From Amoebophrya sp. A120 (Eukaryota > Protista > Dinoflagellata): a stretch of DNA of 64,000 nt. The DNA is taken from contig CAJINV010000001.1 in assembly GCA_905178155.1 (NCBI GenBank), forward strand, positions 10,472,311 to 10,536,310. The letters are read 5' to 3'. The notes below the pieces were generated by a model that saw only the letters and a program-made list of their open reading frames with translations, did not search any database and was not told where the DNA came from. This document shows positions 1,237 to 63,232 of this stretch, piece by piece; position 1 is the stretch's first letter, and each line of letters begins with the position of its first letter. Both the position numbers and the translations under genes were made by a program.

Positions 1237-3254
1237 ATGGGCTTCAACATCGGCATAGGGACGCCCATGGGCACTCCGCGGTACGCATCCGCGACTTACC
1301 ATGCCGGGAGTACTCCGATGACCACCCCCCGCGGAGGTGGGGGCGCGGCCATGGTGCAGACGCCGCGGAGCGTTTCCGGCGCCATGACGATGCTGACGCC
1401 CAGGGTAAACGCGGCGGTGACCAGCGGCGCAAGTGTCTTCCAACAAATCGTCCTCCACCCGACGTGCTTGCTGCACCGACTCCCCATTTGCTCGTCCTCC
1501 GGATTCAACGTTTACCCACGGTCAAAATCCTTGCTCCCCGAGAAGGTGAAGGAAGAGAAGAAGCCCAAGGAGAAAAAGAAGAAACTCACTTTGAAATCCC
1601 TCGTGAAACTGACGATGATGTTCCGGCCCGAGATCCGGCTCTACTTCCGCATGAACGGCTACGACGCCGGCCCGCTCTTCCAGGGCCGGGTGTCCGCGCG
1701 GGAAGGCGAGCTGCGGACCGTGGGCGACATTCTCCGGGTCCTGCGGCAAAAACTGACCCGGAATGTGCAGGCGTACGTCGAGAAATTGAAAGAGTTATTC
1801 CCCTACGAGTCCTCCGCCGGGAGGACCACCATTGGCATGTACTCCGCGAAGGCCGAAGACATCATAGACGAAGACGCGGACATTACCTTCGTCGAGGACG
1901 ACGACACACCACCAAACACCGCCGGCGCGATGAATAACGCGAACAAGCAGGACGACGGGCAGGATAAGGACCACATCACGGTCGACCACATTGGCGGTGT
2001 GTACACCCTATGCAATGCAGAAGTATCGTACTAGTATAAATGGCATTACAAATTGGCGTAGCATTACAAATTGAATTTGTAATGCGGATTTGCCTTAACA
2101 AGAAGATTTGTAATGCATAAATGCCATTTTAGTACGATACTTTTGCAGTGCATACACACCGACGATCAAACTCTTCTACATGGTATCAAAGGCAAAAATG
2201 TCTGGGACTGGGTCTGGAAGAGCCAAACTTGTGATGCTGCATTTGGATGCTGAAAAAACCGGTATTGCATGTTCAAATTTGGCTACGCGGAGAGGGCATT
2301 TGTCATGCAGGACGCGCATCGATAGGCTTAGGCGCTCAAAAAATCTGTGATGCTATTGCATACATCAGAGACATCATGGATCATGGAAAATGTGCATGAC
2401 AAACTTCTCCTCTTCCAGACCCAGACGTTTTTACATTTGATACATGGTGTCGCCCAACGACATTGCGCACTTCGATTTGTACGCGTTCATCCCCCAGCGC
2501 GGTATCAAATGCAAAAATGTCTGGGTCTGGAAGGGTTGGAACTTGTGATGCAAACTCTGGAACACACAAAAATTTGCGTTGCATGAGCGCCAAAAGCTGT
2601 CCATTTCTTGGCACGCAAGTAGGAAGTTTCTCATGCGGGACAGGCATCAGGAGGCGTGCTCAAAACCTGTGATGCCATTGCCTGCATCAGACGCCACTTG
2701 CGTGATCCGAAATATGCATGACAAATCTCAGAATCTTCCAGACCCAGACATTTTTGCATTTGATACGCGGCAGACCGGTGCAAAAACTCCTCCTCCAGCA
2801 GCTCACCTACTACCCCTGGAACAAGCAGATCAAGCGGTTCGGGTGCGACATGCTCCCGCACCCGCCGGGGAGCCGGAAGATCCTGTTCGAAACACCCAAG
2901 CCGCAGAAGAAAAACATCGTGGTCAAGTTCCATGTGGAATCCGATTGGCAGGAACTGCAGCAGTTGATGCGGTTCCTGTTTGACGACAAGGTGAAAAAGC
3001 ACCAGCAGGAGCTGAAAGAAACACAGAAAACGTTCGCGGAGACGTATTTCAAAACCAAGTTGGAGCGAGAAGCGGGTGTGACGAAGGAGCTGATGCTGTT
3101 GTCGGAAAAGCTGTTGGAGAAAAATTGCGGCAACGTGCAATTGGGGTTCGGGGATTCCGTGAAAACGGACATGAACGAAAACATGCGGAAAATGTTCGAT
3201 TTGTACATCAAATCCAAGCAGGAAATGCTCTGGGACGTCAGTTTGAAGGCGTGA
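1237..3254 (+). CDS. Hypothetical protein interrupted by three introner elements
   Basis: ORF 1237-2008 joins micro-exons at about 2160-2183 and 2448-2502 and a final exon to TGA at 3254 when 151, 264 and 268 nt are removed. The joined protein reads ...GGVYTPTIKLFYMVSPNDIAHFDLYAFIPQRGRPVQKLLLQQ... Start codon uncertain; no family recognised. Confidence 0.75.
2009..2154. mobile_element. Introner A (TIR non-canonical intron)
   Basis: Left TATGCAATGCAGAAGTATCGTACTA matches the reverse complement of the right end, TATGCACTGCAAAAGTATCGTACTA (23/25). Flanks CACCC/CACAC. Removing 151 nt restores the frame. Confidence 0.85.
2184..2442. mobile_element. Introner B (main TIR family)
   Basis: TATCAAAGGCAAAAATGTCTGGG...CCCAGACGTTTTTACATTTGATA. 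TSD CATGG at 2179-2183 and 2443-2447. Removing 264 nt keeps the frame. Confidence 0.92.
2503..2765. mobile_element. Introner C (main TIR family)
   Basis: Perfect 31-bp TIR TATCAAATGCAAAAATGTCTGGGTCTGGAAG at 2503-2533 and 2735-2765. TSD CGCGG. Removing 268 nt restores the frame. Confidence 0.95.
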
Positions 3255-5049
3255 GCTGCTTTCGGGAAAATGTACGGAACAATCTTTTTGCGTTCTGTTT
3301 TTTGTGTTTTCTATTTACGCTTGTTTTGCATTCATTCTTCACTATTCATTTTCATCATTCACTGTTTGGCCTCTGCGTAGGCCGCTTCACTAGTGTCATG
3401 CCAGTATCCACCTAGTATTTCACTTTTACACTTATTGATTTATGATTTTCTTTCTCATGATTTTCAGTTTCTTCCATATTGATTTACGCTTCGTTTATCA
3501 AATGACGCATTTTTAGTTGTACGTGAGCGTGAAGTTCTTTTTTCAGCTTCCATGCTGACATAGTGTCTCTCTTGTACTTTTCGCAAATGCCCGATACTCA
3601 TACGGAGGATGGGAATGGGGCTACTACACACAAAGCGACCGCGTGATTTTCCGAGGCAGAAATTGTGCCTCCCGCGGATGACTCCTTCTGTCATGCCTTT
3701 TTCCACTTCCAAAAGCGGCAATCGTGAATTCCTGAGAAATTGAGAGTTCAAGCAGATTTGGGCTCTACTCATGAAGTAGATGTTGATTAGGAGACCTTTT
3801 TTAGTTTTTGTCGGTTTTTTTTCCCCGTGTCTGTGTGTTGTCGTCGGTCTCTTGTGGCCGTAGCGGCAAGTGCGAAAGAGTCATCACTTAACCATCGGTG
3901 ATTTCGTGAAAAAATGACGCACGAGGCATTCGATCAGGCCTGAAAATAAAAGAAACGCAACAACGCAAATGTATGAAGATATCATCTGTTACTAGACATT
4001 AGCTGCAAAAGCGCTTGTCTATCTATCCATAGCTGCTCTGGTCCCGCCAAGCATCATCAAAAGGATACGCTCGGTTTTTTTAAGTTTTCACATGTTGTAG
4101 CGACAACGAGAAATCCAAATCGACGTTCGGTGATAAAGAAAGAAATTTTTCGCACAGGAGCTGTGAAAGCACAAGAGCAAGCGAAGAAGTAAGTAATTTG
4201 TTCTCTGTTTCATCCAGTAACCTCAAACAAAAAACTTGTTCTTCATCACACCAGTCTTCGCAGTTTCTGCCCGCTCCAATTTGATTAGCCCCAATTCTAG
4301 CAGCGAACGAGCAAAATTGCAGCCCTGATAGACGGCTTACATCTTCGTCTAATGAACTTTCTATCTCGAATATCTTTCGCGCCATTCCGAACTTGAATCG
4401 GTTTTTTTGTGCAGTTCGAGGCGTAATTTCTAGAGCTTCGTATGAAGCGCGGGAAGAGACGCAACGCCGACGCCCACTAGTGATTTTCGCACGAGTCGGG
4501 CAGCGCGAGCAGTAAGAAAGGTCTTGTCTTCACATCTTTCAAACCGATCTTACTCCGGTTCAAGTTTCTAAAGCGTAGCTTTCACTCTACATTGTTCGCA
4601 CGCGGCTTTCAGGATTCACGTCAAGAACATGTTCTGTCAATAGTGTTTTGATGCAGCAAAAGAAGACGTTCAGTGACCACCAGGGCGACTAGCTTTAGCT
4701 GACATTTCACATTGAGAAAAAGAAAACATCTATCATCAACGAATTCCATAGCTGTAACAAGAAAAGCTGAAGACTGTAAAAGTCCAAAATCAGAAGTAAA
4801 AGCTATCACTTCTTGCTGTTCCCCTACTCGAAATCCACGACCCTTATCATCATTTGCATTCTTGTTTCAAAAGCGACATGGTAATTTAGAAAAAAAAGCA
4901 AAAATGTCGCATTACTGAAGTCTAGCCGCCTTTACGCCGGACGCTGGCATAGGACGCGAACTAAGCGACGACCTTTTTTGCAGCGTCCGCAGTACTAAAG
5001 ACCTCTGCACCACCAGCGACTCTTTTTGCCTTTCTTTCACGACGTCGAC

Positions 5050-8000
5050 ATGGAGCCAGGAATGGAAAGGAGCACAGGAGAGCGGGCACAGCTCACGACC
5101 GCGACAGAAATGGAAAACCCAAACGGGGACTCCACTGATGTGCCAACTTCTCCTTCTTCCGCTGGCCCGTCGGACGTTCAAAATGATGATGATGAGAATA
5201 ACAAGACCTGGGCGGAATTCTTCCACGACCTGGATGCCAACAATCTCGGCGTCGACCTCTCCGGCGAGGGAAATACCAAAGACATCAAGATTGTAGATGA
5301 AAATCGCTACGGAAAGAGTGGAGATCCAATGCATTCGCAACAGCGCCCTTACTGGGACGGCATTCCGGCTGACCAAGCCCTCTATTCCAACAAGTACGAG
5401 GGCGAAGCTTGTGGCGTCGGCGCGATCTGCAACTTCAAGTCGAAAGCCAGCAGGGAGATCGTGGAGGCCGGGAAGGAGATGCTGATCCGGATGACGCACC
5501 GCGGGGCGACCACCAGGCCGATGGACGGAGATGGTGCAGGCATACTGTGCTCCATTCCCGACCGGTTTTTTCGCGAAATGACCTACCGTGACTTTGTTTT
5601 GCCCCCCGCCGGTGAGTACGGAGTGGGCATCATCTTTATGCCGAGGACCGAGGAGAAACGGCACGATTGCAGGGTGTTGATCAAAAAAGTCGCGAAGAAG
5701 CTCGGGTTGAGCGTTCTCGGCTACCGGCAGGTGCCGACGGACAGCACACACCTGGGACAATACGCTGCATTCACGGAACCGCACATGAGCCAGATTTTCG
5801 TCGCCTTGGACGAGGATTACTTCGAGAGGAACCAAATGACGCTTGACACTGCGAGCGTCTACTCGGTCGGGCACACGCACGCAAGGCAGATCTCCGCGAC
5901 AAGACGGCCCGGGATCGACGCTATCTTCGAAGACGGGGGCTCCCACAGTGTCAAAGACGACGATGAAATCACATCCGCGCCCAGCCCCAGAGGACCGATG
6001 GCGGCAGGTTTGTTTGGTTCATGCTGTGCTAGTGTGTAGTTTTTTGAATTTGATGTTCGTTTCTATATCAAGGTGAAAAATACGAGTTTACGCATCTACC
6101 ACGACATCCAAAAAAATTCAATAAAACAAAGATATGGACCGTGCGAACAGTTTCCGGTCGATGCGTGGGCAGAACAACCGTCTGCGCACCTTGTCCGCGG
6201 CCAGTTCGAACACGAGAGCGGACCACGCGGAGAAGTGCAGATTGCTGGAACTGAAGCTGTTTCTCCTCCGCCGACTGGTGTCGCTCCGCGGGAAGGAACT
6301 GTACTTCTGCTCGCTATCCAACAACATCATCGTGTACAAGGGGCAGCTCGTCCCCGAGCAGCTCTTCCGGTTTTTCGAAGACCTCGAGGATCCGCGCTTC
6401 ACCTGCCATTTAATCGTGGTGCACTCCCGGTTTTCCACGAACTCCTTCCCGTCCTGGTCGCGCGCGCACCCGCACCGGGTGTTAGCGCACAACGGCGAGA
6501 TCAACACGTTTCAGGGGAACGTCAACTGGATCCGTGCTCGGGAGGCGGCCATGGAAGCCTATGGGTCGGACATTCTGGCGAAGACGGGGTTCAGCTCGCG
6601 GCATTTGTTCCCGATGAACGAGGACGTCGGGTCGGATAGCAGTTTTCTGGACAATGTCGTGGAACTACTGACCGCCTGTTCCGGCCGCGACATCGCGGAG
6701 GTGATGCTGATGCTCATCCCAGAAGCGTGGCAAAACGATCCGACCTTGACCCCGGAAAGGAGAGCCTTCTACGAGTACCAGGCCTGTGCGATGGAACCGT
6801 GGGACGGGCCGGCACTGGTGATTTTCACCGATGGACACCAGCTGGGAGCGACACTGGATAGGAACGGGCTGCGACCGGGGAGGTAGTTTTTTGGAGTTTG
6901 TGGTTTTTTGTGGATGATGAACGAGGTATTTTGATGTCCCCGTCTTGATGAACGGAATTTTTCCCGTTCTCAGTTTTGCTAGCTTCGTAGAAAAGACTAC
7001 GTGCCCGTTTATCACAGGTACTACATTACCCAAGATGACCGGTTAATCCTGGCTTCCGAGGTCGGCGTCGTGGATGTGGACCCGCAGCTGATTGTCAGCA
7101 AGGGCCGGCTGCAGCCCGGAAAGATTCTCCTAGTGGATTTTGACGAGCAGAGGGTGCTTCCGGATACCGAGCTGAAGGAGAAGTACGCCAACAAGTACGA
7201 CTACGTTGACTGGCTCCGAAACGTGCCGCACGTGAGCAAGCACTTGGAGAAATCCACGGAGAAGTCGAACAACTTGACTCTCATCTCCGACGCCCGCATT
7301 GTCGAGGAATTGCTCACCTCTTCCGAAGATTCCGATCTCGGTCCGACGCCCACCGGCCAGCACGGTGCGACCGCGTCCAGTCTGGACAAAAATCAACAGC
7401 TGCGTACCGTGGATTCGCACAGCAGTTTCGCGTCGGAGGCCGCTGCGGAAAAGCAGTGGTCGAGTATGGAAATCCCGTACCTAACGTTGTTCGGCTACAC
7501 GCACGAGAAGGTGGAAATGATCCTAGGCCCGATGGCGCTGTCAGGCGCGGAGGCCCTGGGGTCTATGGGAAATGATGCCCCGCTTGCTTGTTTATCCAGA
7601 CTTCCTCGGTCCCCCTTCGACTACTTCTACCAGCTATTCGCACAAGCGACAAACCCGGCCATCGACCCTCTGCGCGAGGCTAACGTGATGAGCTTGGAGT
7701 GCCCGATTGGGCCGGAGGGGAACTTGCTTCAGGTGAGCCCCCAGTCGGTCCGACACCGGTGCTTTCTCGACGAGCCGGTCCTCGATCCGGAACGCTTCCG
7801 GGTGCTGCAAAAGATGCCGTGCCTGGAAAGCTACGCGGTGTTGGACTTGACCTACTCCAGCACCAGCACACATGACGTTGGCAGGCAGCAGTGGAACCAA
7901 AAAGCGTTTGAAAACGATACGGTATTGGAATTACGGCTGGCGCAACTCTGTAACGAAGCTGAAGCCGCGATCAAGATCGACGGTGTGTCGATGTTGGTGC

Positions 8001-11000
8001 TTAGTCACCGCCTGACCAGCCCGGAAACCATACCGATCGCTTCCTTGCTTGCGGTCGGAATTCTGAACCAGTTTCTGGTAGAGCGGAAATTGCGCAGTGA
8101 GGTAAGTTGTATCTATCAGCACGACTGCATTTTCATTTTTCTTCCGCTTGCATTCTCTTTCTCTGAGTCACACAAAAATCACCACAACATACATCAACAA
8201 ACAGGTCGCTATCGTCGTGGAGGGAGGCGACTGCTTTGAAATCCATCACTTCGCCCTACTCCTCGGTTACGGCGCAGACGCCGTCTTTCCCTACATGGCT
8301 TACCTCGCGCTGCAGCGCTGCCGGCGACCGAAGTACACCCAGGACTTCAGTCTGGCGACCAAGATTGAAAATTACCGCCGCGCCGTGCATCAAGGCCTGC
8401 TGAAGGTGATGAGCAAGTGCGGCATCTCGTGCCTCCAGAGCTACAAGGGAGCGCAGTTGTTCCAGGCGATCGGGATCAGTAACAAAGTGGTAAACAAGTG
8501 TTTCACCGGTACGGACGTCGCCCTCCAGGGGGTCGGGTTTGACATCTTCCACTTGGATGCGGTCCGACTGCACACCATCGCGTTTCAGCAGATGCGGTTG
8601 CCCCCCCTGGTGGACGAAGAGTCCCGGGAGCTGCCAGACTGGGGCGAGTACCACTTCTATCGCACGAAAAAAGTGTTACAGTTACACATTTGTTGTCAAT
8701 TTAGCAACACAAATTTCTCGGCATGAGAGAGAAAACTTGCAATGCAGAAATCCTACGGGAAAACACCTATGAAAGGAGGCCCCTATCATGCATATCCGGC
8801 ATGACAGAGCTTGTCTGTCTTGCTTGGCCTGCAACACAGTGTGTAACTGTAACACTTTTTTCTCAGGATAACTTCCGCTCCGTCGGGGAGCAGAACGAGT
8901 TCCACATGAACTCCCCGTATCAAATGTAAAAATGTCTGGGTCTGGAAGAGTGCATGTTTGTCATGCTTGTCTGGCATGACTCTCAAATCTGTCATGCGCG
9001 TTACCCAAGAGCTCCATTTTTCTGCGATGCAGAAACGCAGTTTGTCATGCAGAATAGGCAACACCTAGAAGCTCAGAAACTTGTCATGCTGAGCCAGCAT
9101 TTGTGGCCTCATCATGAGACGACACCCAGCATCACAAGTTTCCAGACCCAGACACTTTTGCATTTGATACCCCGGACGTGATCGCGAAACTCCAGCAGGC
9201 GGCGAAGACGAACAGCACGAAAGCCTTCCGCACTTACGAGGAGTACCAGGACAAGATTTCGGAGCAGGGCGAGGTCCGCGGGCAACTGGAATTCGCGTAT
9301 CACGAAGACGGACCCTTGGACTTGGCCGAAATCGAGCCGGCGAGCGAAATCGTGAAGCGGTTCGTCACGGGCGCGGTCAGTTTGGGCAGCATTTCCGAAG
9401 AAGCGCACAAGGCGCTCGCGCTGTCCATGAACCGGGCCGGGTCCAGATCCAACACCGGGGAGGGTGGTGAGGAGTCGGAACGGTTCACCGCTTTGAAACA
9501 CTCCGGCTTGATCAAGGCCGGCGCCGTGGACTGGGAGGTGGAGAAAAACGACAGTTTCCGGTCGAAGATCAAACAGGTCGCCAGCGGGCGGTTTGGCGTT
9601 ACGACGCAGTATTTAGTGAACGCAGACGAGCTGCAGATCAAGCTCTCCCAGGGCGCGAAGCCGGGCGAAGGAGGGGAACTACCCGGGTACAAAGTGATCG
9701 GGAAAATCGCAGAGGTGCGGCAGAGCACCCCGGGAGTGGGACTAATATCGCCCCCGCCGCACCACGACATGTACTCGATCGAGGATGTCGCCCAGCTGAT
9801 CTCGGATTTGAAGCACGTGAACCCGGAGGCGCGAATTTCGGTGAAACTCGTTTCCCGCGTTGGCGTCGGAATCATCGCCAGTGGCATTGTGAAGGGGAAA
9901 GCGCAACACGTCACGATTTCGGGCGGAAATGGAGGTACCGGTGCCGCGAAGTGGACCTCAATTAAGCGCACGGGGTTGCCGTGGGAAATCGGGCTTGCGG
10001 AGACCCATCAGACTCTGAATCTGAATGGCATTCGGCAAAATGTGTGTTTGCAAACCGACGGGCAGATCAGAACGGCCCGGGACATCCTCGTTGCGTTCCT
10101 GCTCGGCGCCGACGAGGTTGCAATGACCACCGCACCGCTGATCACTTTGGGGTGCATCATGATGCGGAAGTGCCATTTGAACACCTGTCCAGTCGGCGTT
10201 GCGACGCAAGATCCGGAGCTACGTGCGAAATTTGACGGGCATCCAGAACACCTGATTAACTACTTGTTTCTTCTCGCGAACGAGGTGCGCCGCTACATGG
10301 CGCAGTTGCGGGTAACCTCGGTCAAAGAGCTGATCGGGCGTGCGGATTTGCTGCGACCGAGGCCGGCCACGTTTCAGAACCGGAAAACCGCGCAGTTGGA
10401 TTTCGAAGCGCTGCTCACTCCGGCTTGGACCATGAACAGCTTGGTCATGCAAGACCAGGCACCGCAACTACACCAGGAGACGATCGACCGCCGAGGCAGT
10501 CCGGCCGCGGCGGTCCGGCGCGGGACGCGTCGTGCTCCTGGGAACTACATTTGCTGCGGTGGGTCCGCGACGGCGGACGCGTTGGATCACTTCTTGGTGT
10601 CAAACTGCAAACCCCTGAAGGAATTCCAGCCGGCGCAGTCGTTCGGCCAGACACGTACTAGATGTGACTCAAATTTTGTCTCGTGCTGTTCATCTTTTGA
10701 GAGCTGTGTATTGTAATGGTAATATGCGACGCGTAGCGATTATATCAGTTCACATGATCAAGCAAGAGGGTTGCACACTCCGACACCAGGCTGGCTGCCC
10801 GGTGTCGACCAGCTTCGGCTGGGTCTCTGTCCTTTGTCCAGAAATACCGCATTGTCTTGGCTCGCCTAGATTTTGCGTTTTTTCGTCTCTTCGGTTCTCG
10901 GAGAGTGGATATTTGACGGAGGAGTGTCTCGATGAGAAAGCGAGGCGCACTTGTGCGCCTCAGGCCTTCGCTCTGGTTCTGCTTCGCAGTTCCGCCTTGT

Positions 11001-14000
11001 CGTTTCCGGCGCTGCCGATCCTTAGCGTGGATCAATGCAGTGCGCGGCAAGCAAAGAGCTCCGGTGGTCCCGTTGCCATTGAGCTGCCCAAGCCATGGGC
11101 AGGTCAGAACAGACGGCGTGCGCCTTGCCGTGTGCACGTAGCTCGGCCCTACCGAGTGCCAGGGCATTATCCTGACAGGGGATGATGTCCCGGTGGGAAG
11201 GAAGTTGTTGCGCAGCTCTCAGAGTGCGGAGAGAGAGTTCGCGTTCTTCGACTACCCTCCAGGCTATCTCCGTTCAGTGGTACACACACGTCGATGACGC
11301 GCTCTCGGTTCTCGCGAGCACCACTGGCCGGGGAGTGGAGAACCCGACTGCCCACGATGTGGGTGTAGCAGAGGTTCTTCACGCCGTTAGGGGCACAGGC
11401 CCGGCGTTATCTTGGCCTATTGGCCAGGCCCGCTATCGGCAAGACACATCGGAAAACAGCGCAGCTTCGTCTGCGGCCTGCCGCTCTGTGTGTCGCGGGC
11501 GCTTCGCGATTCTGCTTGTCGATGCACGCCGCGATGCGGCAGACATGCAGTAGCAAGGCGCTCGTCTGTCGTAAATGGATTCGCGCGAGCGGGGGCGCCG
11601 CGGTCCATTACGATGGGAAGGCCTCACTGAAGGCTGTGAAATAGCCACTGGTATCCTACTAGGGCGATGCCCGCAAGGTCCCTGTCACAGGGGTCCGGGG
11701 CCAGTGTAGCGGCAACCTACCGCAGCCGGCAAAAGATCGCGCCGACGGTCATAAGCCGGGGCTAAGTACAGACAGACACACAGGAACACGAGGCAAAAAA
11801 CAAGGCACCCCCGCGCCATGTATTTAGCCCCTGCCAATGGCAGGGGCCGCCCGATGGGCCGCATCACATACACACTACGATCTGACTACAAATAGAGTCA
11901 CCGAAACGAAACGCAATGGTCTGCGTGCCCGATGGGCACGCAGATATATTAAGTACCAGGGCCAGCCCTCACACCACACCGCCCAGCACCCTGGACGCGC
12001 AACCCCACAGCCCCGCAGGCGCGGCGGTTTGTAGCAGTGGGTCGCATGCCTGGGGCGCAGGTTATTGCTGGTGTGTGCCTTCGCCTGCGCGTGTGACTTC
12101 GATGACGTCGCCTGCGGGTGCTGGGGTGGGGTTGGGCGTCCGCGACGTCGTTGTTGCTGCTCTTCGGAGCTCGTGACGCCTTCGTTGCAGCTTCCACATG
12201 GATGCTTGCTTACATCTTGCAGGGCATGTTGTAGGTAGCACTTCGTGTGGAAGTATCAGGTGTGCTGACACGGAAGGAGAGCTGAGGAGCGTGGCCTATC
12301 GGCTTCGCGACTCCGTCCTTCGCTCCTCGGCGTCGGTCCGCCGGTGTTGATTGCTTGAATGCAGTCGACGCAGTCGAGGGGTTCAGCGGTTGGTGTGGGG
12401 GCGAGAGGGAGCGCTGCATAGATGCTCTTTTGCTTCTGTGAACAGGTTCGTTCTTCTCCTGCTTCGGGGTCTCCCAGGAGATCCTGACTCATCCAACGGG
12501 CCTGGGGACGCTTTTGTGGCCTTTGCGAAATTTAAACGAAACACAGCTACGACAGATAGCGTCTACTTACCGAGACGCGTGGTCGGTCGCGCAGTGCTTT
12601 GTGCTGCTTCCGCCACGAGAGGAGACCGCGGAACCCTCCCGGGCCTTACTTATTTAGTCACATTTGGGAGCACGCCCCCACTATCCTCACCCGGTTCCCG
12701 GGTTGTGTCGCGGGGATATGTCCCGGCACGATTCCACAAGCCTCGCTACTTTGCTACGCCGCCCCGTGCGCCCTGCTCTCTGTCCCCGACAGTGCGGGCT
12801 GCCCCCTTTGTTTAGTCGCATTTGGGGAAGATATTCGGCGGTCCCAGTCGCGCCTCGCGGCTTGGGCCACCTCTATGTCCGGGGCATGGCTCTGTGGGGG
12901 TCGAGAGCCTGGCTTGCATGGCCTGCTACCCGTAGCTCGTTGTGCCGGCCGGGTTCTCTCTTGGCTGCCATTGTGACTGTCGCTCGAGGTCTTGCGACTA
13001 TCACTGCGACGCGCTTCTGCACGTCATTCGCTTCCGTTGGTTGCGCGCGCGTTCACTCTATGGGTGAATTGCGCAGAGAAGGTGAAATTATATATAATGT
13101 TGCCTTCTGCTTCTTTGCGCTAGTAGAGCAAACCTTGACTGAAAACAACCTTGCAAACTAAAAAACTCAGATATCCACCAAGCCGAGCGTCGTATCCGTC
13201 CGCTGACGATCAGTCTCGTTCGCATCACCAATGAGCACCGCACCGTCGGTGCCATGCTGTCTTACATGGTGTGTCGATTTCAGGAGACTTTCAACGAGAA
13301 CAAGGCACTCGCTGCCGATACCATTCGGGTCCAGTTCCAGGGCCACGCTGGGCAATCGTTCGCAGCCTTCCTCATCACCGGAATTACCTTCGAACTTGAG
13401 GGCGACGCAAACGACGGCTGCGCCAAGGGACTCAGCGGCGGTCGCGTGATAGTCTACCCGCCGCAGATGTGCAGCTTGGTGCCGCACGAGAATATCTTGA
13501 TCGGAAACGCCGCACTGTACGGCGCGACCGGCGGTCAGGCCTTCTTTTCCGGTGTCGCATCCGAGCGGTTCTGCATCCGTAATTCCGGCGCCGTCGCGGT
13601 CGTTGAGGGCGTCGGCGATCACGGGTGCGAATACATGACGCGCGGGCTGGTGCTGATCCTCGGGAAAACCGGAACGAACTTCGCCGCCGGGATGAGCGGT
13701 GGGATTGCTTTTGTGCTGGATTTGAATCCCCAGAACGTGAATTCCCAGACCGTCTTCGTGGAAAGCATCACGGAAGAGGACCAGCACACGATCAGAAACT
13801 TACTGGAAGAGCACACGGAACTCACCAACTCGCAGATCGGAGCGGAGCTGCTAGCGCTACCGCCCAAGCAGCTTGCCCCTCGGTTCTCCCGCATTTTTCC
13901 GAAGGAGTACAAGAAGGTGCTGAAAGAAGCGATCGTCGAACACACGAAGGTCGGGTCGAAGCTCGCGGCGAAGATCCTCGATGAATTCGACAAGATGCGC

Positions 14001-29880: not shown

Positions 29881-29902
29881 CGGCGTGCCGTCCTGTTTCG
29901 TG

Positions 29903-41700: not shown

Positions 41701-41911
41701 AGGCGTTTACTTGATCGATTCCTCAACTAACGGAACTTATCTCAACGGGAAGCGCGCGCCGGAAAAAAAGCGGATCGCGCTCTGCCACGGCGACGAACTC
41801 TGTTTCAAAAACGCAGAGCAGTCTCAGAATGTCGACTCTTTGCAAGACATTAACTCATCTTTCAAGGACAATGAGTTTGGCTATATCGTCAATCTAGTAG
41901 CGACCTCTTAA
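35753..41911 (+). CDS. Large R/S/K-rich protein with C-terminal KH-like and FHA domains
   Basis: A 1628-aa low-complexity ORF joins ORF 40856-41911 through a phase-2 GT-AG intron at 40636-40797. FHA motifs ISIGK, VSRNHC, LIDSSTNGTYLNG and HGDEL; KH-like segment IVEDQCRVTLHC...VCIVGSDDQREAAQATL. Confidence 0.72.
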
Positions 41912-52310: not shown

Positions 52311-55300
52311 ATGAGTAAGCCAAACTCTGGCAAGCAGGACCCGTTGTCCTACCGGAGCAGTCAGAGTCGCAACAAAGACAACCCATCAAGCTCGGAGAAA
52401 AGTTCCCAAGCCCCTTCGTTTCCCGCGACACCCGGGCTCCGCATCGTACCGTCGGGGCAGAATTACAGTGGTTCCTCTCTGCCACCAGGCGATCATGGCT
52501 CTTCCCTGCCCAGCGAGGCCAATATTTTTCTGCAGCACGTGGAGCCGCTGCAGGACCGCTTGGCAAGTGGCGAGCAGAGGGAAAAAGAACTGCAGGCCGT
52601 GGTGTCGAAAGACCCCGCCGGAGCGGGGGAGGAAGACGCACTTCTCGGCGGCACCGAACAAGATGAAGATACCAGTTTCAAAATGCCGCAGGAGTACTAC
52701 ATGGACCGGTGGTCTGTGGATCTGAACGTCGGAGACCGTATGCACAGCATGTTCAAGGACGCCGAGGCCGCGAAGCGGGAAGAAATCCTAGCTGAAACGG
52801 GACAAGAACTGTCACTGGCGGAATTGGCAGAAGATACCGATTTCCTTTTCCCTCCCAGCAAGGTGGGCATGGGAAAGATGTTTTTCTTCGTGTCCGGTGC
52901 CAAGGAGCGGTGGCGCTACATTGGCGGCGCGATGATCGCGCTTGTCGCGCTCGCACCATCCGGGCTGTCCTTCGTCATCGTGCAGATCCAGCTCGATAAC
53001 GTAGATGAAACGTTCGCGCGCCAGGACATCGGGAATGCAAACACGATGGCCGTGTCCCGGGCGGCAGCGAATCTGAACAAGGATCTGCAGTTGAACCAGA
53101 GTATCTGGGCCTTGGCGTGGCCACCGCTTCTCGGGCTAGTTTTCCTCGGAATCTGGACGATACTGATGGTGTACACCAGTTTTTACCTGTTCGAATCCGC
53201 GGCCGTTTTGCAAATTGCCCGTATTCGGCGCTTGTACCTGAAAGCGGTTTTGACCCAAGACTTCGCCTGGTTCGATGCGACGAACGAGCTGGAACTTCCG
53301 CAACAGATTCAGCTCGATATCGAGCGTATTCGATTGGCGTTTGGGTCGCGGTTGTGCATCGCCCTGCAGGCGCTCGGGCTCGCGATCGGGGCACTGGGCA
53401 TCTCGTTGATCAAAAACTGGATGTTGACCTTGCTAGTTCTCCCCGGCGTTGCGGCGGTCTACTTTTCCGCTGTGTGGATGCTGAACGTGAAGCAGGAACG
53501 GACCACGAAGTCCGATACCAGCTATTTGGAGGCCGCTACCATCGCGGAGGAGTGCTTTCGGAGTGTCCGGACGCTGTATTCCTTCACGTCTGAGAAACGG
53601 GAAGTCCAGGGCTACGCCGCGGCGGTCGACCGTTCGAAGGATGCCTACAAGACGACCGCGGTGAAAATGGGACTGGCGCTCGGATTCCAGGCCTCCGCGG
53701 TGTACATTTTCATTGCCATTGCGCTGTTCTTCGGGCGGTTGCAAATCTTCACGTGGAAAACTGGCCAGACCAGTGCGGGGGTGTTGGCGGTCATTTTTCT
53801 CGTCTTCAACGGACTGATCTATCTCCAGCAGGCAGCGGCTTACTTCGTCGTGTTTGCGGATTTCAAAATCAGTTTCGCAAACGTATTGTCGCTCGTCCGC
53901 AGCAGTCTGCGTTCCAAAATGGTTTTTGGCGACGAAACGCTGGAATTATCACCGGAGGAGCTGGAAGCAGTGCCGCACAAGCAGGTCGCCACCTACGCGG
54001 TTAAAAGACATTTGGAACAGCAACGGCTGCAAAAGAACGACGCTAGCCCCACAAGTAATCCTTCGTCGTCGAAGATAAAAATGTCGAAGAGCCCGCTGGC
54101 AGCTTCTCCGGTCTCGTCAACTTCTCTTGCCAGTGGGGGTGGGGGGGAAGGAGTGCACTACGCTATGATCGAGCGCGGGTCCGAAGCGGGAAAGAACAAG
54201 AAAAAGCAGGCGGACAACACGACGAGGGCGCTTGTCACGGAACTTCGACGGCTAACAACTGTCCTGGAGGTGCAGTCTGGTGTGATGAACAACATGTCCT
54301 CCGCTACGTCCTCGAAAACATCCAAGAAAACTAGTACTGCCTCCTCGCCTCTTTTGGGACCTTCGACGAAGCATTCCAGCACGAGCTCCAACAAAGCTTT
54401 CGAAGCCGCAGACGAAGACCTCCGCCGTGCCTACCTGCTGGAGTTTGATTTTTCTCTGGAGAAGCAAGTTCGCAAGAAGTGGGCGCCTTGGCTACGGGAA
54501 TCGACACCAAGTGACACAGTTGAGGCCTTGATTCCGCCAATCGACGACGAGGCTAGTACCTCTTTCTCTCCCCCTACCAGCAGCTCCACGGTATCGGGCA
54601 GCGGCTCGGGCGAAAGTCGGCGCACCTTCGACGACTTCCTTTGGCAGGTGCTGGGGTTGAAGATGGAGAAGATCAAAGTTCGCACCACGACGGATCTGCC
54701 TTCTCTCACCCTTTTCGTCGAACAGGTGCGACCGGACTCGCCGGCGGACAGAGCTGGAATTTCGGCGGGCTGTCGCCTGATTCAGTGGGACAACAAGGAC
54801 GTGGCTCTGGTGACGAGCAACTACAACAAATCGTCGCGCAAAAACCGCCCCCTCGCCACCGTCTCGGCCCCGAAAGGAGATTTTTACGCGGACGCAGATC
54901 ATCTTCCGCGTGACCAGCTTACCGGCCTGATTCGTGCGGACCCACACGTGCTGCGTGACTTGCTCGTGGAGAACCGCTCGCGCACGGTGCGGCTCTCTTT
55001 CCTGGACTCTACGGGTGTGACGCTCACGGGCTCCAACGTTTTGTTTGCGTACCCGACCCGCCCGGAGAAGACCGTACTTCGCGGCATGTCGTTCCTGATC
55101 AACGCGGGAGAAAAGGTGGCTTTCGTCGGTGGGTCTGGGAGCGGCAAGAGCACGGTGCTGCAGCTGCTGCAGCGGTGCTACTTCCCAGATGGCGGCAATA
55201 TTCAGATGAACGGATATCCGCTCAAAGAGATTTTCACACAAACATTTCGAAGCCTGGTTGGCGTGGTGTCGCAGGACCCGACGTTGTTCGGGTCGTTGAC

Positions 55301-58300
55301 CATTCGGGAAAACCTTCTTCTCGGCATCGACGACGGGAGTCGGCAAAAAATTTCGGACGACGCGATCCTTTCCATCCTCGACGTGCTCAAGCTGCGCGAC
55401 TGGGTGCAGGCGTTGCCGCAGGGCCTGGAATCCTCCGGCGTCTTCCTGTCCGGCGGGCAGAAGCAACGGCTGTCGATCGGACGCGCCATGCTCCGCAATC
55501 CGGCAATTTTGATTCTCGACGAAGCCACCTCCGCACTGGACATGGACTCCGAAAAACAGGTCATGGCCTGCGTCGACAGTCTCGGCCAGCCGTCTGCTTT
55601 ACTCGAGCCGTTTCACGCGGGTCTGCCAACTCTGCAAGCGGCCATGCAGCGACGTTACAAGGTCACCATGATCGTCGTTGCGCACCGGTTGTCGACGGTA
55701 TTTCGATTCTATTTGTTTTTGGATTTGAGAATTTGGCCCAAAACAAAGTACTTTTTCCAGCACCTAATTGATTCTGCAGAGGTGGTTTTTGTCATCTTCT
55801 ATAATCCTATTCCTACATACTCGGCTGCTCAGGTGGAGAATTGCGACAAGATTGTGGTGCTGAAGAACGGGCGCGTGAGTCAGTGCGGCACCCACCAGGA
55901 GCTCCTTCTCGATCCTCACGGGCTCTACGCTTCCATGGTGCAGCAGGGCGCCACTACAGAGGACCCCAAACAAACCCGTCGAGAAACGGCGCATAAAAAT
56001 CATCTGTTGAAAGGACCCTCGTCCGCACTGCAGCCCCCAGCGACGAGGCAACTCTTCCGCAAGGAGTCCGCGCAACTGGAACCATCTTTTTTCGTCACCC
56101 CGGATATGGGGCGGGCCATCATGGGCACGGGACTGCAGGACGGATACGCAGTGAACGTGAATCGCGGCTTTGAGACGGATGGCATGCTCACCAGTATGGC
56201 GCGGTCTCGCATGATGTACGGCTTGTTTGGCAAGGAACGCCGCGACACCGCGCCGCTAGACAGTCAAGTGGAAGACCGGGACAGTGCGAATCTTCGGCAA
56301 ACCCGAACGAGAAGGACGACCAACGTCGAGCCAGTGGAAGATAAGATTGCGGTGCCCTCGCCAAAGAGTAAGAGCAAGGACGGAAAACCGACTACTTCAC
56401 CGAAACTGAAGAAGAAGGATAGCAAGACGCGTAATTCAGATACAAAGTCCACGGGGGCCGAAGAGTCACACGCCCAGCAGTCGAGACTCAGTGGACAAAC
56501 GCCGCTCGACACATCAAATGCGGCCCAACAAGGATTGCTTTCGACGATGCTCGGGTTCGGCGAGGCGCCGAAGGAGAACGTGGATGACGTGTTTGGCGAC
56601 TTGGCTCCTCCGAGCACCACAGCAGCTGACAAATCGCCAAAGCGAGAAGGAAAGAGATCAATTGCGTCCATTTCGGGGGGACTTCACACCCGTCAGGAAA
56701 TCCAGCAGCAGCAGCAGCAGCAATTGCTCCCGGCCGATGATTTGCAGGACGCACCAGAGCAGCGACGGTCTTCAGGGCGGACCCAGCACGGTGTGGGGTT
56801 TCCGTGGTTCCAGCGAACTGGTGAGGGGGAAGCCGGTTTCTACAACGGATACGTTTACCAAGGCGATGAATTCTCAGATGACGAAGCTGATGAGACTAAC
56901 GCACTTCTGTTGACCAGCAAAGCTCCTACTCTGGGTCGTGGTCCAGACGCTCTACTCAGGACAAGCGCCACTTCCTACCGCGCGATCGACTTCGATGCGC
57001 GCGCCAGTGCGGCGGAAGCAGTTGCGGCAGAGAGTAGCAGTGATAGCGAGGAGGAGGATCCTGCGTATGACAGCTCGTCCTCGGCAAGCGTAGACGACGA
57101 GCGGCACTCACGACTGAGTTCCGGGACGATACAGGAGTCGGCCATGGAAGATGACGCTGCCCCTCGGTCCGCGCGGCGTAAGAAAAAGCAACCAAAAATG
57201 ACCGCGGCGGAGAAGCGGCTGGCACAAACCACTTTCAGTGGCTCATTGAAGCGACTGCTACGCGCGCCGTTCACCACGCCGCACGAGGTACGCGCGTTCT
57301 TGGTGCCGGCGATTCTTCTGAGCACGGGAATTGGCATCTGCCGCCCCATTGCGGCGTGGATTCTGTGCAAAACGCTCCTTTCCAACAAAGGCGTCCCCGT
57401 GGCAATAGAGCGCGTCGAGCAGGGGGTGGAAGTGGAGCGCAACCTGGGGATTTACACCACTGGACGAAGGTGGATGGACCTTGGCTGCATTGGTCTGGGC
57501 GGAATCGGCCTCACCCTGATTTTTCTCCTGTTCATGCAGCAATGGATTTACTACACGAAACTCATCACGCAAGTGCTCGCCCGGGTCCGCGCCCGCGTGT
57601 TTCGAAGCATAGTCACGCAAGAACTCCTCTGGCACGATTTGCCGGAAAACGCACCGGACAGGTAAGCAATTCTGCATCTAGTTTCCTCTTGAGTTCCGTA
57701 TGTTATTTCGGTTGGTGTGACAACAGAGGGTGCTCCTGTTCACATGATGCGCATAATCTAAAAATATTCTGCGGAGAGTTTATTGATTTTGTACGACCTA
57801 TGACCTAATCCGATTCCGAAAAAACAAAAAAACAGGTTGTGCAACTTACTGCAGCGTAGTTGCAATGCGTTTGTGGAGCTAATCCCCTGCGTGGGGAATC
57901 TGACACAAGACCTGGTGACCGTATTGGGGTCTCTCGGTGTTTCGTTCGGCCTCGCTTGGGAGATGAGTCTTGTACTTTTCTTCGCGATCATTGGAATCAC
58001 CGTTATGCTGTTCTGGCTAACCGCGACCTTTGGGGATCCCGGCCCGCCTTCCGTCGCAGAATTGACGACGCAAAAGTACGTGAGCGAGTCCATTTTTGCC
58101 GTGCGTGTGCTTCGTGGCTTAAACGGAACTGAGGAATTCTACTTGCGCTTCAAGCACATGGTGGCACAAGAACAGGAGGCCCAGTTGATCACGTCAAGAC
58201 GGCAGGCGATCGCAAGAGGGTTGACCGAGACTAGTCAGGCCTTGCTTTTTCTTACGGTGTCCGGTTTCGGCACGATTTTGATCGCCAAGGGCGTCAGCAC

Positions 58301-60268
58301 CGGGGTCGCGATTTTCACGGTCCTGTTCGTCTTCATCCTGATTGCCAGCAGCGGCGCGAACCTCGCTACAACCTTCGGCCTCATCGCGGAGGGGAAACGC
58401 GGCGCCGCGGAACTGTTTTTCACGCTGGACCGCAAGCCGATGATCCAGTACACCTACGCGGATCCAGTCAACATGGTCCCGGAGCCGCAGCGGTTTCGCA
58501 AACTCGCGCGAAATCAGAAGAAAATCAAGGACTTCGAGCAGATCCGGTTCCAAAACGTCCACTTTTCCTACCCATCCCGGCCAAAGAACCCGATTCTGCG
58601 CGGTCTGACCCTGGAAATCAATCGCGGCGACACGGTCGCTTTGTGCGGCCCCTCCGGTGGTGGCAAGAGCACGGTGATGCAGTTACTCCTCCGGTTCTAC
58701 GACCCAAACCAATTCGTGTCCGGTTTGTACAGGAAGGACCGAAACGTGCAGAAATACCTCCTCCACGGCTCGTTCGCGGGCAGAGTGGTTTTGAACAAAG
58801 ACGAGCTGGACCTGCGCACCGCCGTGGATTTAAAGTCCTGGCGGTCGATCATCGGATACGTGGGACAGGAACCGGTGTTGTTCGACATGTCGGCCTGGGA
58901 CAACATTGTGTACTCCCTGGAAGCCGAAGAACAGGCCAAAGTGACGGTAGACCAAGTGAAAGAGGTTATCCGAAGTAAAAATGTGCCCACCCCAGAGTTG
59001 TCATGCAGATTTGCGATTACAGGAAGATTTGTAATGCGCATCTCCTTGAGAGGCGTTTCCAATCGTGTTTTGCAATTTGTCATGCTGCAAACAGGATAAG
59101 CGCATGGATTTGTGATGCGGTTGTCGTTTCTAACATGCACTACGCTACGGACTGCAACCTGTCATGCGTGGCTCCCAAAACTTCTGGATTTGTGTTGCTA
59201 AGTTCCCATCTTGACCTTGGTGTGGGGACGTTTTTACATATGAAAGATGTCGCAAAGCAGGCCATGGTGGACTTCCTCGGCGAGGTAGCACCGCCACCGG
59301 CTTCTTATGGATTGTAAAAATGTCTGGGTCTGGAAAATTGCAACTTGTCATGCTGTCTTTGGATCCCAAAAAAATATGTATTGCGTGACCAGCAACAGGG
59401 GTCCAGTTTGTGTTACGCGGAGAGGGCATTTGTCATGCGGAATAGGCATCAGGAAGCCCTCTAAATATCTGTGATGCTAGATCATGCATTACATGAGTCA
59501 TGGATCATCTAAAATATGCATCACAAATCCCGGAATCTTCCAGACCCAGACATTTTTACATTTGATACTTCTAGCGCAGTTACAACTTCTCCCACCCCGT
59601 CCGGCGGGTTGCCGGGGTTCGAAAGCGCCGCTACTGGAGCGAGTAGCCCTTCCTCCCTCGGAGAAGTGAAGACGGCGGGGACAGCGGTCTCTGTTGACAG
59701 TGGAGCAGCAACTACAGCTACACCGCGGAAAAGTGCGGCGCAGGTGGGGTTCTACCCTTCTGGGGACATTATGATGGACAACATAACGTCTGAGGGCAGC
59801 AAGCAAACACCTACGTCTCCGGCGACCGGCGCAACCACCCCGTTCATGCCCTCCTCGTACAGTCAGCAGCCGCAAAGTGCGGAGGGCAAGAAGCCAGCCG
59901 AGATCGGGTGGCACACGCTACTCGGCACCCGGGCGTCGCTTCTCTCGGGTGGGCAGCGGCAGAGATTGTCCATCGCACGGGCGTTGTTGCGGAAGCCGCA
60001 GATTCTCCTGTTAGACGAAGCTACGGCGGCACTGGACAACAACTCGCAGAGGGAGGTACAGGCGGCACTGGACGCTTTGCTGCAAACGATGGGAAAACGC
60101 ATGACGGTAATCACGATTGCCCATCGGCTCTCGACAATTCGCAACTACAGCAAAATTTTAGTGATCAAGCAGGGAGCACTGGTTGAGCAGGGGAATCATG
60201 ACATGCTACTGCAACAGAACGGAATCTACGCCGGCTTGTACTACGCGTCGGTGGGAGACGAGCACTGA
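52311..60268 (+). CDS. ABCB (MDR/P-glycoprotein-like) full transporter, TMD-NBD-TMD-NBD
   Basis: Walker A GGSGSGKST and GPSGGGKST; signatures LSGGQKQR and LSGGQRQR; Walker B ILDEAT and LLDEAT; AHRLST twice; two hydrophobic TMDs. GT-AG introns at 55698-55832 and 57662-57835, plus introners G and H. Confidence 0.93.
58967..59245. mobile_element. Introner G (diverged TIRs)
   Basis: Left TATCCGAAGTAAAAATGTGCCCACCCCA; right reverse complement TTTCATATGTAAAAACGTCCCCACACCA (21/28). Flanks GAGGT/GATGT. Removing 284 nt gives DQVK(E/D)VAKQAMVDFL. Confidence 0.82.
59306..59567. mobile_element. Introner H (main TIR family)
   Basis: TATGGATTGTAAAAATGTCTGGGTCTGGAA...TTCCAGACCCAGACATTTTTACATTTGATA. TSD CTTCT. 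Removing 267 nt keeps the frame. Confidence 0.93.
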
Positions 60269-61158: not shown

Positions 61159-63232
61159 ATGGAGCGCAGCAACATGAGGAATCAGACGGTGGCTGTCGCC
61201 GGGCGACAGTTCAACCCGCTGGAACAGGATGAGTCGGTGCTCCGCAAGGGCGAGCGTTCCAACACTTTGCCGACCAGTTTCCGTCGTGGTGATTTGGAAA
61301 TCAAGGAAGCCGACTTGAAGGACCTCGAGCAGCGCCAGGCAGCGTTGAAGGGTAATAACTCCGATTTAGCCTCATGTCAGTGCATCTTGTCTTGCGTGAC
61401 ACTTCTCCTTCTTCTTCATCACATTCCGCGTCGAAAATGATTTGTGCTACGCTCGTCGCGCTCAAATTCAAGAGTGCATATGCATCGAAAATCAAAAACT
61501 AAATCAGGTCGTCAGCGACGTGGGTCTATCAACTTGACGAAGGTCGATGAGAAGGACATGGCACACTACTGGGAAGAATGCAAGGACATTGACCTGCACT
61601 TGCACGGCAAGCTCTCAGCAATCCAATCTGACAACGTCCCTGGCGCTGAGCGGGAGGCTGTGTTGTACAAGCTGAAGGTAGAAATCGAGCTTCTTGTTTC
61701 AGATTCCTTTAGCCACCGTGACCGTTCCTAATGCTGAAATATGCAAATGTTCTTCACCTTCATCATCCAACAGGAGCCGAAGCTGCTGCAGGAGAAGTAC
61801 AAGTTTATCTACTCCTGCGTGAAGGGTGCCAAGGGCTACAACGACACAACCCCGAACCAAGACAACTTCTCCTACACCGTCTTCCAGGGCTGGGACATCA
61901 TCATCATCATGGACGGTCACGGTCCCTGCGGGCACCGCGTCTCCGCGCGCTGCGTGCAGACCATCGCCTTCTACCTGTGCACGAACTTGAAGTGGGGAAA
62001 AGGTATTGCAGCAAGCTTTTCATCTATGACTAAATCCACATCATCAGCAGATTATCCTGCTGTTTTGTACGTGTACTGCAAATCTTCAAAATTAATGCGA
62101 GTGCGACGCAAACAAGCGCCCCCGACACCGACACACAACATAACACAAAAATGCTCTTCCGAAACTCCACAGACATGAAGGGCGCTATGAAGGACGCGTT
62201 CGCCAAGGCTTCCGAAGACGTGCTCGCGTACGCCATTGAAAACGATATTGACGTGCAAGCCTCCGGATCCACCTGCGTCATGTACATGCACAACGGCGAG
62301 CAGTACTACACGGCGAACGTCGGGGATTCCCGGGCGGTGATTGGATACGAGGGGGAGAAGGAAGTCGTCTTCGAAACCGCGGACCACAAGCCGAACTCGC
62401 CGGAAGAAAAGAAACGCATCGAAGCGAATGGCGGTGAGATCAGAACGCTGCGCTACGACGACTTCACGGTGGACCGTATCTTCGTCAAGGGCTGCGACTT
62501 ATCAACTGCAAAAATGTCTGGGTCTGGAAGCGTCGGGGCTTGTCATGCACATTTTGCATGACCCGTGAGGTCTGTGATGCTGGTGCAAGCATCACAGATT
62601 TTTTGAGAGCTTCTTGATGGTGATTACGCATGAGAGCTGCCCTCCCCGCGTGCCAAGAACTGACTCCTCTTGCTGCTTATGCAACACAGACATTTTTAGA
62701 ATCCGCAGACAGCATTACAAGTTCCACTCTTCCAGACCCAGACATTTTTGCATTCGATACGACTACCCCGGTCTCTGCATGTCCCGGTCCTTCGGGGATG
62801 AGTGCGTCAAGGGCTGCGGTGTCACCTCCGAACCGGAAGTCACCGGACCAACCAAGGTATCTTTAGGGTAGCGGTGATGGTGGTACTTAATACATAGGCT
62901 TTCCGACTCATCATTTGCTCGTGTCGTAATCTTATCATCCCACGATTACGAAAGTTGTCGATTTATTACAATAAAACGTCTACTGTCGAAACAAAAAACA
63001 GCTCGACCTCTCCCGCAATCCGTTCCTGGTGATCGCTTCCGATGGTGTGTGGGAGTTCATCGAGAGCGCTTGGTGCGTGAAGGCGATTGTGAAAAAGCTG
63101 TCCCAGGAGCCGGCCGAGCGAATCATGCAGAAGCTGTCCAAAGAGGCCCGGCGGCGATGGAAACAGGAAGAAGGCGAGTACTGTGACGATATTACGGTCT
63201 GCTTCATGCAGATGAACCGCCATATGAAGTAA
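61159..63232 (+). CDS. Protein phosphatase 2C (PPM family)
   Basis: Motifs PNQDN, MDGHG, SGST, ANVGDSR, DHKP, MSRSFGD, IASDGVWEF and DDIT. GT-AG introns at 61352-61507, 61678-61773, 62003-62172 and 62857-63001, plus introner I. Confidence 0.94.
62500..62759. mobile_element. Introner I (main TIR family)
   Basis: TATCAACTGCAAAAATGTCTGGGTCTGGAAG...CTTCCAGACCCAGACATTTTTGCATTCGATA. TSD CGACT. Removing 265 nt gives RIFVKGCD-YPGLCMSRSFGD. Confidence 0.95.

Follow-up and report, generated by a model that had tools for sequence, protein, structure and literature searches.

Inverted-repeat introners of Amoebophrya sp. A120 leave transcripts with one copy of their 5-nt repeat: evidence and a possible hairpin-measured cut

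How are insertions taken out of a transcript when no splice dinucleotides mark their borders? The question is posed by a 64,000-nucleotide (nt) stretch of the Amoebophrya sp. A120 genome, here called the window, in which nine short elements with terminal inverted repeats (TIRs) and a flanking 5-nt direct repeat interrupt five genes: those of a fused glutamate synthase (GOGAT), an ABCB-type transporter and a PP2C phosphatase, and two genes without Pfam match. Where transcripts could be checked, the elements are removed at the RNA level without a scar. They belong to a class of introners that Farhat et al. 2021 (PMC7789003) had described in this organism. That the removal is a cut made on RNA and measured by a hairpin, whichever machine performs it, we hold to be very probable; that the machine is a modified, probably U1-less spliceosome, reading the TIR stem as an RNA ruler, is in our estimate an even call. 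In order along the window, the elements are as follows:

Introner 1, 2009..2154, + strand: 146 nt, largely palindromic; repeats CACCC/CACAC; host gene without Pfam match; contig joins 2008 to 2160.
Introner 2, 2184..2442, + strand: 259 nt; repeat CATGG; contig with 74 letters between aligned pieces, as predicted (74).
Introner 3, 2503..2765, + strand: 263 nt; repeat CGCGG; TIR 30/30; RNA-derived contig.
Introner 4, 8658..8870, + strand: 213 nt; repeat ACTTC; in GOGAT, between GEYHF and R; contig and homologues.
Introner 5, 8918..9169, + strand: 252 nt; repeat CCCCG; in GOGAT; contig and homologues.
Introner 6, 43529..43737, + strand: 209 nt; repeat GTCCT; host gene without Pfam match; reading frame only (~441 codons open after removal).
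Introner 7, 58967..59245, + strand: 279 nt; repeats GAGGT/GATGT; in the ABCB-type transporter gene; public gene model CAD7926636.1.
Introner 8, 59306..59567, + strand: 262 nt; repeat CTTCT; in the ABC transporter gene; public gene model.
Introner 9, 62500..62759, + strand: 260 nt; repeat CGACT; in the PP2C gene; explicit contig joint, homologues and gene model.

The elements and their removal from transcripts

All nine elements begin with TAT and eight end with ATA, the one at 58967 ending in AAA; the direct repeat is perfect at seven of the nine sites and carries one mismatch in CACCC/CACAC and in GAGGT/GATGT. Recomputation from the sequence returned the same coordinates, termini and 5-nt repeats that an earlier note on this DNA had given for all nine. 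The TIRs are ~25-31 nt long, with 18-25 matches over the first 25 nt and 21-30 over the first 30 nt. An unbiased window-wide scan for inverted ends with a flanking repeat gave 75 loose matches, all nine elements among them and no further TAT element, as compared with 19-23 loose matches in each of three block-shuffled windows (0-1 with a perfect repeat and at least 16/22 TIR matches; 0-1 starting with TAT). The published signature of TAT, seven variable nucleotides and at least three A fits 16 of the 18 ends, the exceptions being the left end at 2009 (AGAA) and the right end at 58967 (TTT). Five elements (2184, 2503, 8918, 59306 and 62500) constitute one family of 67-77% identity, in which the element at 62500 is reversed relative to the other members, introners 3 and 8 included. 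An internal motif, TTGT[CGA]ATGC, occurs 25 times in the window and 24 times inside elements. The elements are multi-copy, with relatives of 67-77% identity within the window and of up to 95% in a related assembly, and with a summed contig depth far above that of the flanks.

The relatives came from a TIR-pattern search of 13 of 64 parts, which returned at least 155 stretches making up 153 loci (484 kb), those listed sharing one assembly; given that the loci were chosen by TIR pattern, conservation of their termini is circular. The pattern had 0 matches in viral contigs. Among 198 short end pairs selected with no regard to the repeat, a perfect 5-nt repeat was found in 163 and one with at most one mismatch in 187, compared to a single 4-nt and no 6-nt repeat. 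Flanking sequence sufficed at 185 sites, and at the 62 of these that were confidently coding, removal of the element plus 5 nt (mod 3) was best in 54. Taken together, TIRs, short length, lack of coding capacity and a target-site duplication (TSD) of constant length are the features of a miniature inverted-repeat transposable element (MITE), a non-autonomous TIR DNA transposon, and the TIRs and repeat-length counts in relatives bear out the proposal of MITE-like elements with a fixed 5-bp duplication.

Evidence for removal comes from assembled contigs based on complementary DNA (cDNA), which drop rare variants. Run X3 was treated as RNA, its contigs being free of GT-AG introns, and run X1 behaves as DNA, with even depth over introns and spacers. 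At six of the nine sites (introners 1-5 and 9), the element and 5 nt are absent from spliced transcript contigs. The joint at 62500 is explicit: the contig passes from 62494 to 62760, skipping 265 nt (260 + 5), and also holds four GT-AG joints. A 2,024-nt contig follows 1023-2008 without a difference, continues with the letters from 2160 onward and resumes at 2766, so that the 74 letters between its pieces equal three elements each removed with 5 nt. In the 11,152-nt GOGAT contig, the 492 letters between pieces equal the 492 predicted for removal of one GT-AG intron and of introners 4 and 5 each with 5 nt, a test of the sum rather than of each element. Both orientations are spliced within the window, as the contigs at 2503 and 62500 show. 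Public gene models already take out three of the nine elements (58967, 59306 and 62500), and at 58967 and 59306, two sites beyond the six, they do so as element plus 5 nt; transcription of the ABC gene was not seen, coverage there being zero in four of four runs. The expectation that transcript junctions delete exactly the element and 5 nt was hence borne out at six of nine sites.

Use of cryptic GT-AG sites nearby, which the earlier note had named as grounds for giving up its interpretation, was not seen at the six RNA-covered sites, where joins and lengths match element plus 5 nt. Every cut does have frame-keeping GT/GC-AG pairs nearby, at a summed shift of 9-39 nt, and an ordinary spliceosome might use them; to do so would alter lengths and residues, whereas element plus 5 is exact at six sites and the conserved motifs are exact. 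This explanation is the least probable of those considered and is left only for 43529 and the ABC pair.

The reading frames of the host genes provide a further constraint. The genes are:

Host gene 1, 1135..3254, + strand: ~479 codons after removal; no Pfam match.
Fused NADH glutamate synthase, 4999..17357, + strand: four GT-AG introns besides introners 4 and 5.
Reading frame around introner 6, 42982..44521, + strand: reading frame.
ABCB-type transporter gene, 52293..60268, + strand: A120 model GSA120T00005306001.
PP2C phosphatase gene, 61159..63232, + strand: A120 model GSA120T00005305001.

A 139-amino-acid stretch of the ABC transporter is 100% identical to CAD7926636.1 (Amoebophrya sp. A120), and the PP2C protein equals model CAD7926638.1 across the junction; for the PP2C exon, the closest named relatives are Amoebophrya proteins of 85-90% identity, and GOGAT is 55-64% identical to its homologues. 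Retention of the element would introduce an in-frame stop within 3-55 codons in all nine cases. The claim that element plus 5 nt restores the frame nine times out of nine stands as regards the open frames and the conserved GOGAT and PP2C motifs, but it needs qualifying: frame alone cannot tell removal of +2, +5 and +8 nt apart, and in gene 1, with its three shifts combined, every k from 0 to 7 keeps the frame open. The value of +5 is owed to the homologues of PP2C and GOGAT and to the RNA contigs: PP2C relatives read KGxDYPGL, which picks +5, and the GOGAT region obtains its best mean bits with +5/+5 (76 spanning homologues among 120). The PP2C proteins of A25 and Ameob2 are colinear across the 62500 site at the protein level. 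None of the collected related loci overlaps the unique DNA of the window and could thereby show an empty orthologous site.

Position of the cut and proposed mechanism

None of the nine elements offers a GT-AG or GC-AG register within its repeat. The absence of GT-AG had been noted earlier, and it is confirmed for all nine; the accompanying list of nearest registers was incomplete, as GT-TA (43529), GT-AT (58967), TC-AG (43529) and AT-AC (2184) also occur. The relatives extend the observation. A relaxed search gave 261 elements, 164 of them orientable, and the main family lies in both orientations to the host gene (36:28). Of 129 oriented sites chosen for perfect repeats and clean flanks, 6 could provide GT-AG (4.5-5.9 expected), without enrichment of any register; a 3' AG of any kind was available in 66 (63.8-64.8 expected), and G stood at repeat position 5 in 40 (38-40 expected). 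The count for G[TCA]-AG, 13 of 129 with 13.3-15.4 expected, is not that of introners at canonical sites, and the counts for AT-AC (one of nine window elements; 5 of 129 relatives, 3.9-4.9 expected) are not those of U12-type introns. There is no selection for splice dinucleotides among the 129 relatives and, in conjunction with the contigs at six sites, the idea of scarless removal irrespective of splice dinucleotides is upheld.

A perfect repeat leaves six or more equivalent registers for the cut, and the two mismatched sites are therefore the informative ones. At 2009 the copies differ at position 4, the transcript retains the left copy and only registers 0 or -1 fit: the 5' cut then falls right at the TIR or one nucleotide ahead of it, and the 3' cut lies 5 or 4 nt beyond the opposite TIR. 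One base offset from this position lies a perfect ACACC/ACACC repeat, whose use would delete 153 nt; it is unused, the contig showing a deletion of 151 nt, and repeat homology employed at 2009 amounts to at most 1 nt. At 58967 the gene model reads QVKE followed by VAKQA across the junction (E, not D), meaning that the left copy is again retained, with registers -2 to 0 allowed. Because left copies are retained and the perfect alternative at 2009 is passed over, we infer that the geometry of the cut is set by the element ends, hence by the hairpin and not by repeat homology. Guidance by end hairpin and repeat together, as formerly suggested, is thus retained for the hairpin but, as worded, not supported for the repeat. 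In the -1 register, the intron would start N-TAT; among the window's eight canonical introns with RNA support, seven have a GTA donor, the one at 6883 being taken one base to the left of its printed index. Among the 164 oriented relatives, 21 mismatched repeats fall at all five positions (6/3/4/5/3), where RNA is needed to assign the register.

The same evidence bears on whether the joins could be falsitrons, that is, reverse-transcriptase slippage over a hairpin and direct repeats, with the insertions simply disrupting their genes. Hairpins with short direct repeats are a known signature of the artefact, which can affect up to 70% of cDNA reads (PMC8240250, in the parts available), and the RNA evidence is all cDNA-based. 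Slippage at 2009, however, would be expected on the perfect ACACC repeat (-153 nt) or to leave the right copy, not to give -151 with the left; retention would put a stop in nine of nine cases within otherwise intact conserved genes (GOGAT 55-64%, PP2C 85-90%); and 29,850 such introns are counted in A120 in the text of Farhat et al. (PMC7789003). We consider the explanation improbable, and slippage may nevertheless inflate apparent removal efficiency. Slightly less probable still is excision at the DNA level in expressing cells, in the manner of ciliate internal eliminated sequences or somatic transposon excision. The TIR and TSD anatomy is that of a transposase substrate, but contigs of the DNA-like run X1 (900-2038, 2742-8686 and 9146-10751) lead from unique exon ~30 nt into the elements and do not fork at the repeat. 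Nor would a transposase usually leave a footprint in which exactly one repeat copy is gone. A minor, stage-specific fraction of empty sites may exist, considering that contigs drop rare variants.

In the mechanism we propose, the observed point of departure is that the elements have TIRs and a repeat of fixed 5-nt length, are multi-copy, lie in both orientations and are removed together with 5 nt. A staggered-cutting DDE transposase supplied in trans would have made the repeat. In the transcript, the paired element ends are predicted to form a stem that could be used as a ruler: folding in context gave z = -8.3 and -6.4 for two elements, and in all nine the terminal stem pairs from about position 9 to 18 are predicted with P near 1 at nearly all positions. 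Retention of the left copy, by RNA at one site and by gene model at another, would mean that, at the RNA-shown site, the 5' cut falls at the base of the stem or precedes it by 1 nt, and the 3' cut follows it by 5 or 4 nt. The two unpaired tails would then always sum to 5 nt, and any insertion could be removed without a scar because they do. The -1 register would bring TA(T) of the TIR to +2/+3/+4, as in the GTA donors of the host, leaving +1 and the acceptor dinucleotide free. Also in favour of this reading, U1 went undetected in A25 and A120, for which the minor spliceosome is also reported absent (PMC7789003, as far as its text goes), and the strain ex Karlodinium has both U1 and canonical introns (PMC12005148, likewise).

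A considerable, if smaller, probability is assigned to the same elements and hairpin ruler being served by a spliceosome-independent endonuclease-ligase or another separate machine, convergent with the nonconventional introns of Euglena. Freedom from dinucleotide constraint at either end across 129 sites, independence of orientation and a predicted stem that buries the 3' 30 nt all speak for such a route, as does the precedent of Euglena, where splicing is described as decided by fixed 3- and 5-nt spacers around the terminal pairing (PMC12501133) and excised introns as non-lariat circles (PMC11282704). The match of TA(T) to the host GTA donor in the -1 register argues against it; so do the loss of U1 that, from the portions of the literature covered, tracks such introns across Amoebophrya strains (PMC7789003, PMC12005148), the TIR/TSD introns of Fritillaria, reported to be spliceosomal, and the fact that no candidate enzyme is known.

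Several points weigh against the hairpin ruler read by a modified spliceosome. The stem would bury the region where the branch point normally lies. The prediction is weak for the outermost 1-8 pairs of introners 1, 4 and 7; removal of introners 1 and 4 despite weak outer pairs implies that the ruler is not simply the base of the predicted stem. Placement of the register comes from one RNA contig and one gene model. Raw reads across the junctions of introners 1-5 and 7-9 were not found in runs X10-X12, where X10 reads lie mainly over 15384-18000 and the region of the ABC and PP2C genes has 7, 0 and 0 reads, respectively. In 73 X10 raw reads, an element end is joined to foreign sequence, from which it follows that unspliced copies from another locus exist. 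Finally, the model leaves a bias of codon phase unaccounted for.

Codon phase, mobilisation and other features of the window

Among the 164 oriented relatives, 86 sites place the repeat on codon positions 3,1,2,3,1, and the other phases account for 41 and 37 (p = 1.3e-6), giving proportions of 52:25:23; in the -1 register, this is an excess of phase 0, as in Polarella introners. The nine window elements split 4/3/2. The phase caller was correct in 76 of 77 calls (200 trials, 123 without a call), control phases 0/1/2 were without such excess (25/25/27 and 36/25/39), and a call from open reading frames (ORFs) only gave 29 of 50 in the major phase. The major class has 43 sites on each strand; in the two minor phases the called strands are uneven (12:23 and 29:14), a possible sign that some strand calls are wrong, or of chance. 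As to the cause, a single-base bias was not found; dinucleotide steps (YR/RY/SS/WW) showed only a weak YR excess (44 and 42 vs 34); no splice dinucleotides emerged, AG at repeat positions 3-4 being seen 15 times vs 9 (p = 0.055, uncorrected, 13 tests); a target-context classifier reached an area under the curve of 0.48-0.56; and element length mod 3 was 70/58/59. A weak, distributed target preference may underlie the bias (n ~145). On a broader and more tentative formulation, which we regard as somewhat unlikely, A120 would possess a general, sequence-blind splicing route for any TAT..ATA transposon hairpin in either orientation, its cuts being staggered by a constant amount, with tails that add up to the 5-nt TSD, so that every insertion is harmless; the route might be non-spliceosomal and convergent with Euglena (3+5 nt), in which case the 52% share of one phase would stem from a hidden rule on the exon side, without any target motif being detectable.

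The elements likely spread as non-autonomous DNA transposons, likely mobilised by cut-and-paste through a DDE transposase acting in trans. Against this stand the absence of a transposase or integrase family by Pfam in 133 of the 228 ORFs of at least 190 amino acids from related loci, and the absence of a transposase from A120 in what is accessible of Farhat et al. (PMC7789003). A120 TIR elements with integrase-like ORFs, a candidate source of the mobilising enzyme, are described in the available part of Gozashti et al. 2025 (PMC12130899). Two candidates were rejected. A 2,618-nt TIR pair at L072 proved to be a gene holding seven short elements; by eye count, seven introners lie there within 2.6 kb of one gene (L072:2993-5610), with exons of ~50-170 nt. 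The second was a multi-copy insert of ~2.4 kb within the 2,516-nt GT-AG intron of GOGAT at 10655-13170, which has no TIR or long terminal repeat, no Pfam match (5 fragments), no Atlas match and no counterpart in related loci. Summed DNA-contig depth over it is 300-800 vs ~42, related transcripts exist, and a palindrome lies at 13077-13108; its minus-strand frames, broken by stops, have by eye a faint look of what we take to be integrase motifs. Three further TIR pairs, 457-631 nt long and flanked by perfect 5-nt repeats (L026:4313-4770, L053:570-1051, L054:3861-4492), are possibly nested or longer family members. Among known superfamilies, IS3EU/GingerRoot and IS481EU resemble the elements in their TA..TA or TNT..AYA termini and short TIRs; as described in the consulted part of PMC10045372, the TSD is usually 6 bp in the former and 4, 15 or 25 bp in the latter, as opposed to 5 here, with 6-nt repeats in 0 of 198 pairs. 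The resemblance is a lead only, and the elements are not counted as members of IS3EU/GingerRoot.

The + strand holds every long ORF and Pfam-matched gene of 1-64000, a unidirectional cluster that also includes an FHA protein (40775), an RRM protein (48956) and a second PP2C fragment (25226). The tracts at the ends of the eight RNA-supported GT-AG introns (6008-63001) are A/C-rich, AAAAAACAG being one example, and not polypyrimidine. The region 27900-31200 holds a GC-rich tract (72% at 28001-29000), degenerate TTTAGGG telomere-like units at 29360-29440 and direct repeats of ~720 nt with 75-88% identity (29031/29749, 29976/30700, 30173/30897). Rfam gave 0 matches in the window. Within the coding region of GOGAT, raw reads of run X10 have an abrupt start at 15384-15407, where a loose end resembling an adaptor is presumably a template-switch oligo; the start likely represents truncated cDNA.

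Comparison with known systems

In what could be consulted of Farhat et al. (PMC7789003), A120 has 29,850 repeated non-canonical introns, ~240 nt long on average and of many families, whose inverted repeats start TAT + 7 nt + AAA, whose direct repeats are 3-5 nt (5 bp in the legend of Fig. S19) and for which a hairpin model is given. The nine elements come from the same organism and differ in nothing of kind: they have border repeats within 3-5 nt, are removed non-canonically (RNA contigs at six of nine sites) and are repeated in the genome. The earlier note was right that the class is known in Amoebophrya, but it overstated the novelty, as TAT signature, 5-bp repeats and hairpin model had been published. 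What differs is detail: inverted repeats of 8-20 nt, variable direct repeats and a border left unknown in that account, compared to TIRs of ~25-31 nt, a uniform 5-nt repeat and a narrowed border here, and figures S19-S25 of the same paper may already show part of it. Gozashti et al. 2025 (PMC12130899), to the extent available, treat the A120 families as TIR DNA transposons of unknown superfamily, mostly at non-canonical sites. In 19 of their 58 A120 rows, sizes are ~150, 208-214, 252-261, 278 and 320 nt with TIRs of ~25-33 nt, the same size classes as found here; the likeness is one of size class, not of family number, and automated calling gave those families TSDs anywhere from 2 to 5 nt, compared to 5 in the present elements. 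The removal mechanism is called open in both Farhat et al. and a review (PMC7789003; PMC11282704; passages available), and a later mechanistic, register or phase study of Amoebophrya was not found in the literature searched, although subscription papers and figures outside it could hold one. To that question the present analysis contributes modestly, with the clue to the register, the lack of selection on dinucleotides and the bias of phase, and it makes the question more testable, since mismatches in the target repeats naturally mark where the cut really lies.

The introners of Polarella, Aureococcus and Micromonas are likewise MITE-like with TSDs, at times in both orientations, and show phase bias (bioRxiv 10.1101/2020.10.14.339549; PMC11282704; parts seen), with phases of 51:23:24 reported for one Polarella class (bioRxiv 10.1101/2020.10.14.339549). 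Polarella-type introners carry or recruit G[TCA] and AG, which explains their bias in that account; in A120 no recruitment is detectable, and the phases are 52:25:23. A phase bias without target motif does not fit the explanation by proto-splice sites, and the lack of a dinucleotide constraint sets the A120 elements apart from all spliceosome-recruiting introners. The nonconventional introns of euglenids, from an unrelated lineage, share terminal pairing, the absence of GT-AG, fixed stem-to-cut spacers that are longer on the 3' side and a proposed MITE origin (PMC12501133, PMC11282704; sections consulted). Their excised products are circular (PMC11282704, same section). The euglenid ends are CAG/CTG with 3- and 5-nt spacers (PMC12501133, as excerpted), as compared to TAT/ATA with 0-1 and 5-4 nt in A120. 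CAG at +4..6 pairing with CTG at -8..-6 does not occur in the present elements, and a terminal stem joining the ends is predicted for them, so that they would work alike with the euglenid introns without being members of that class.

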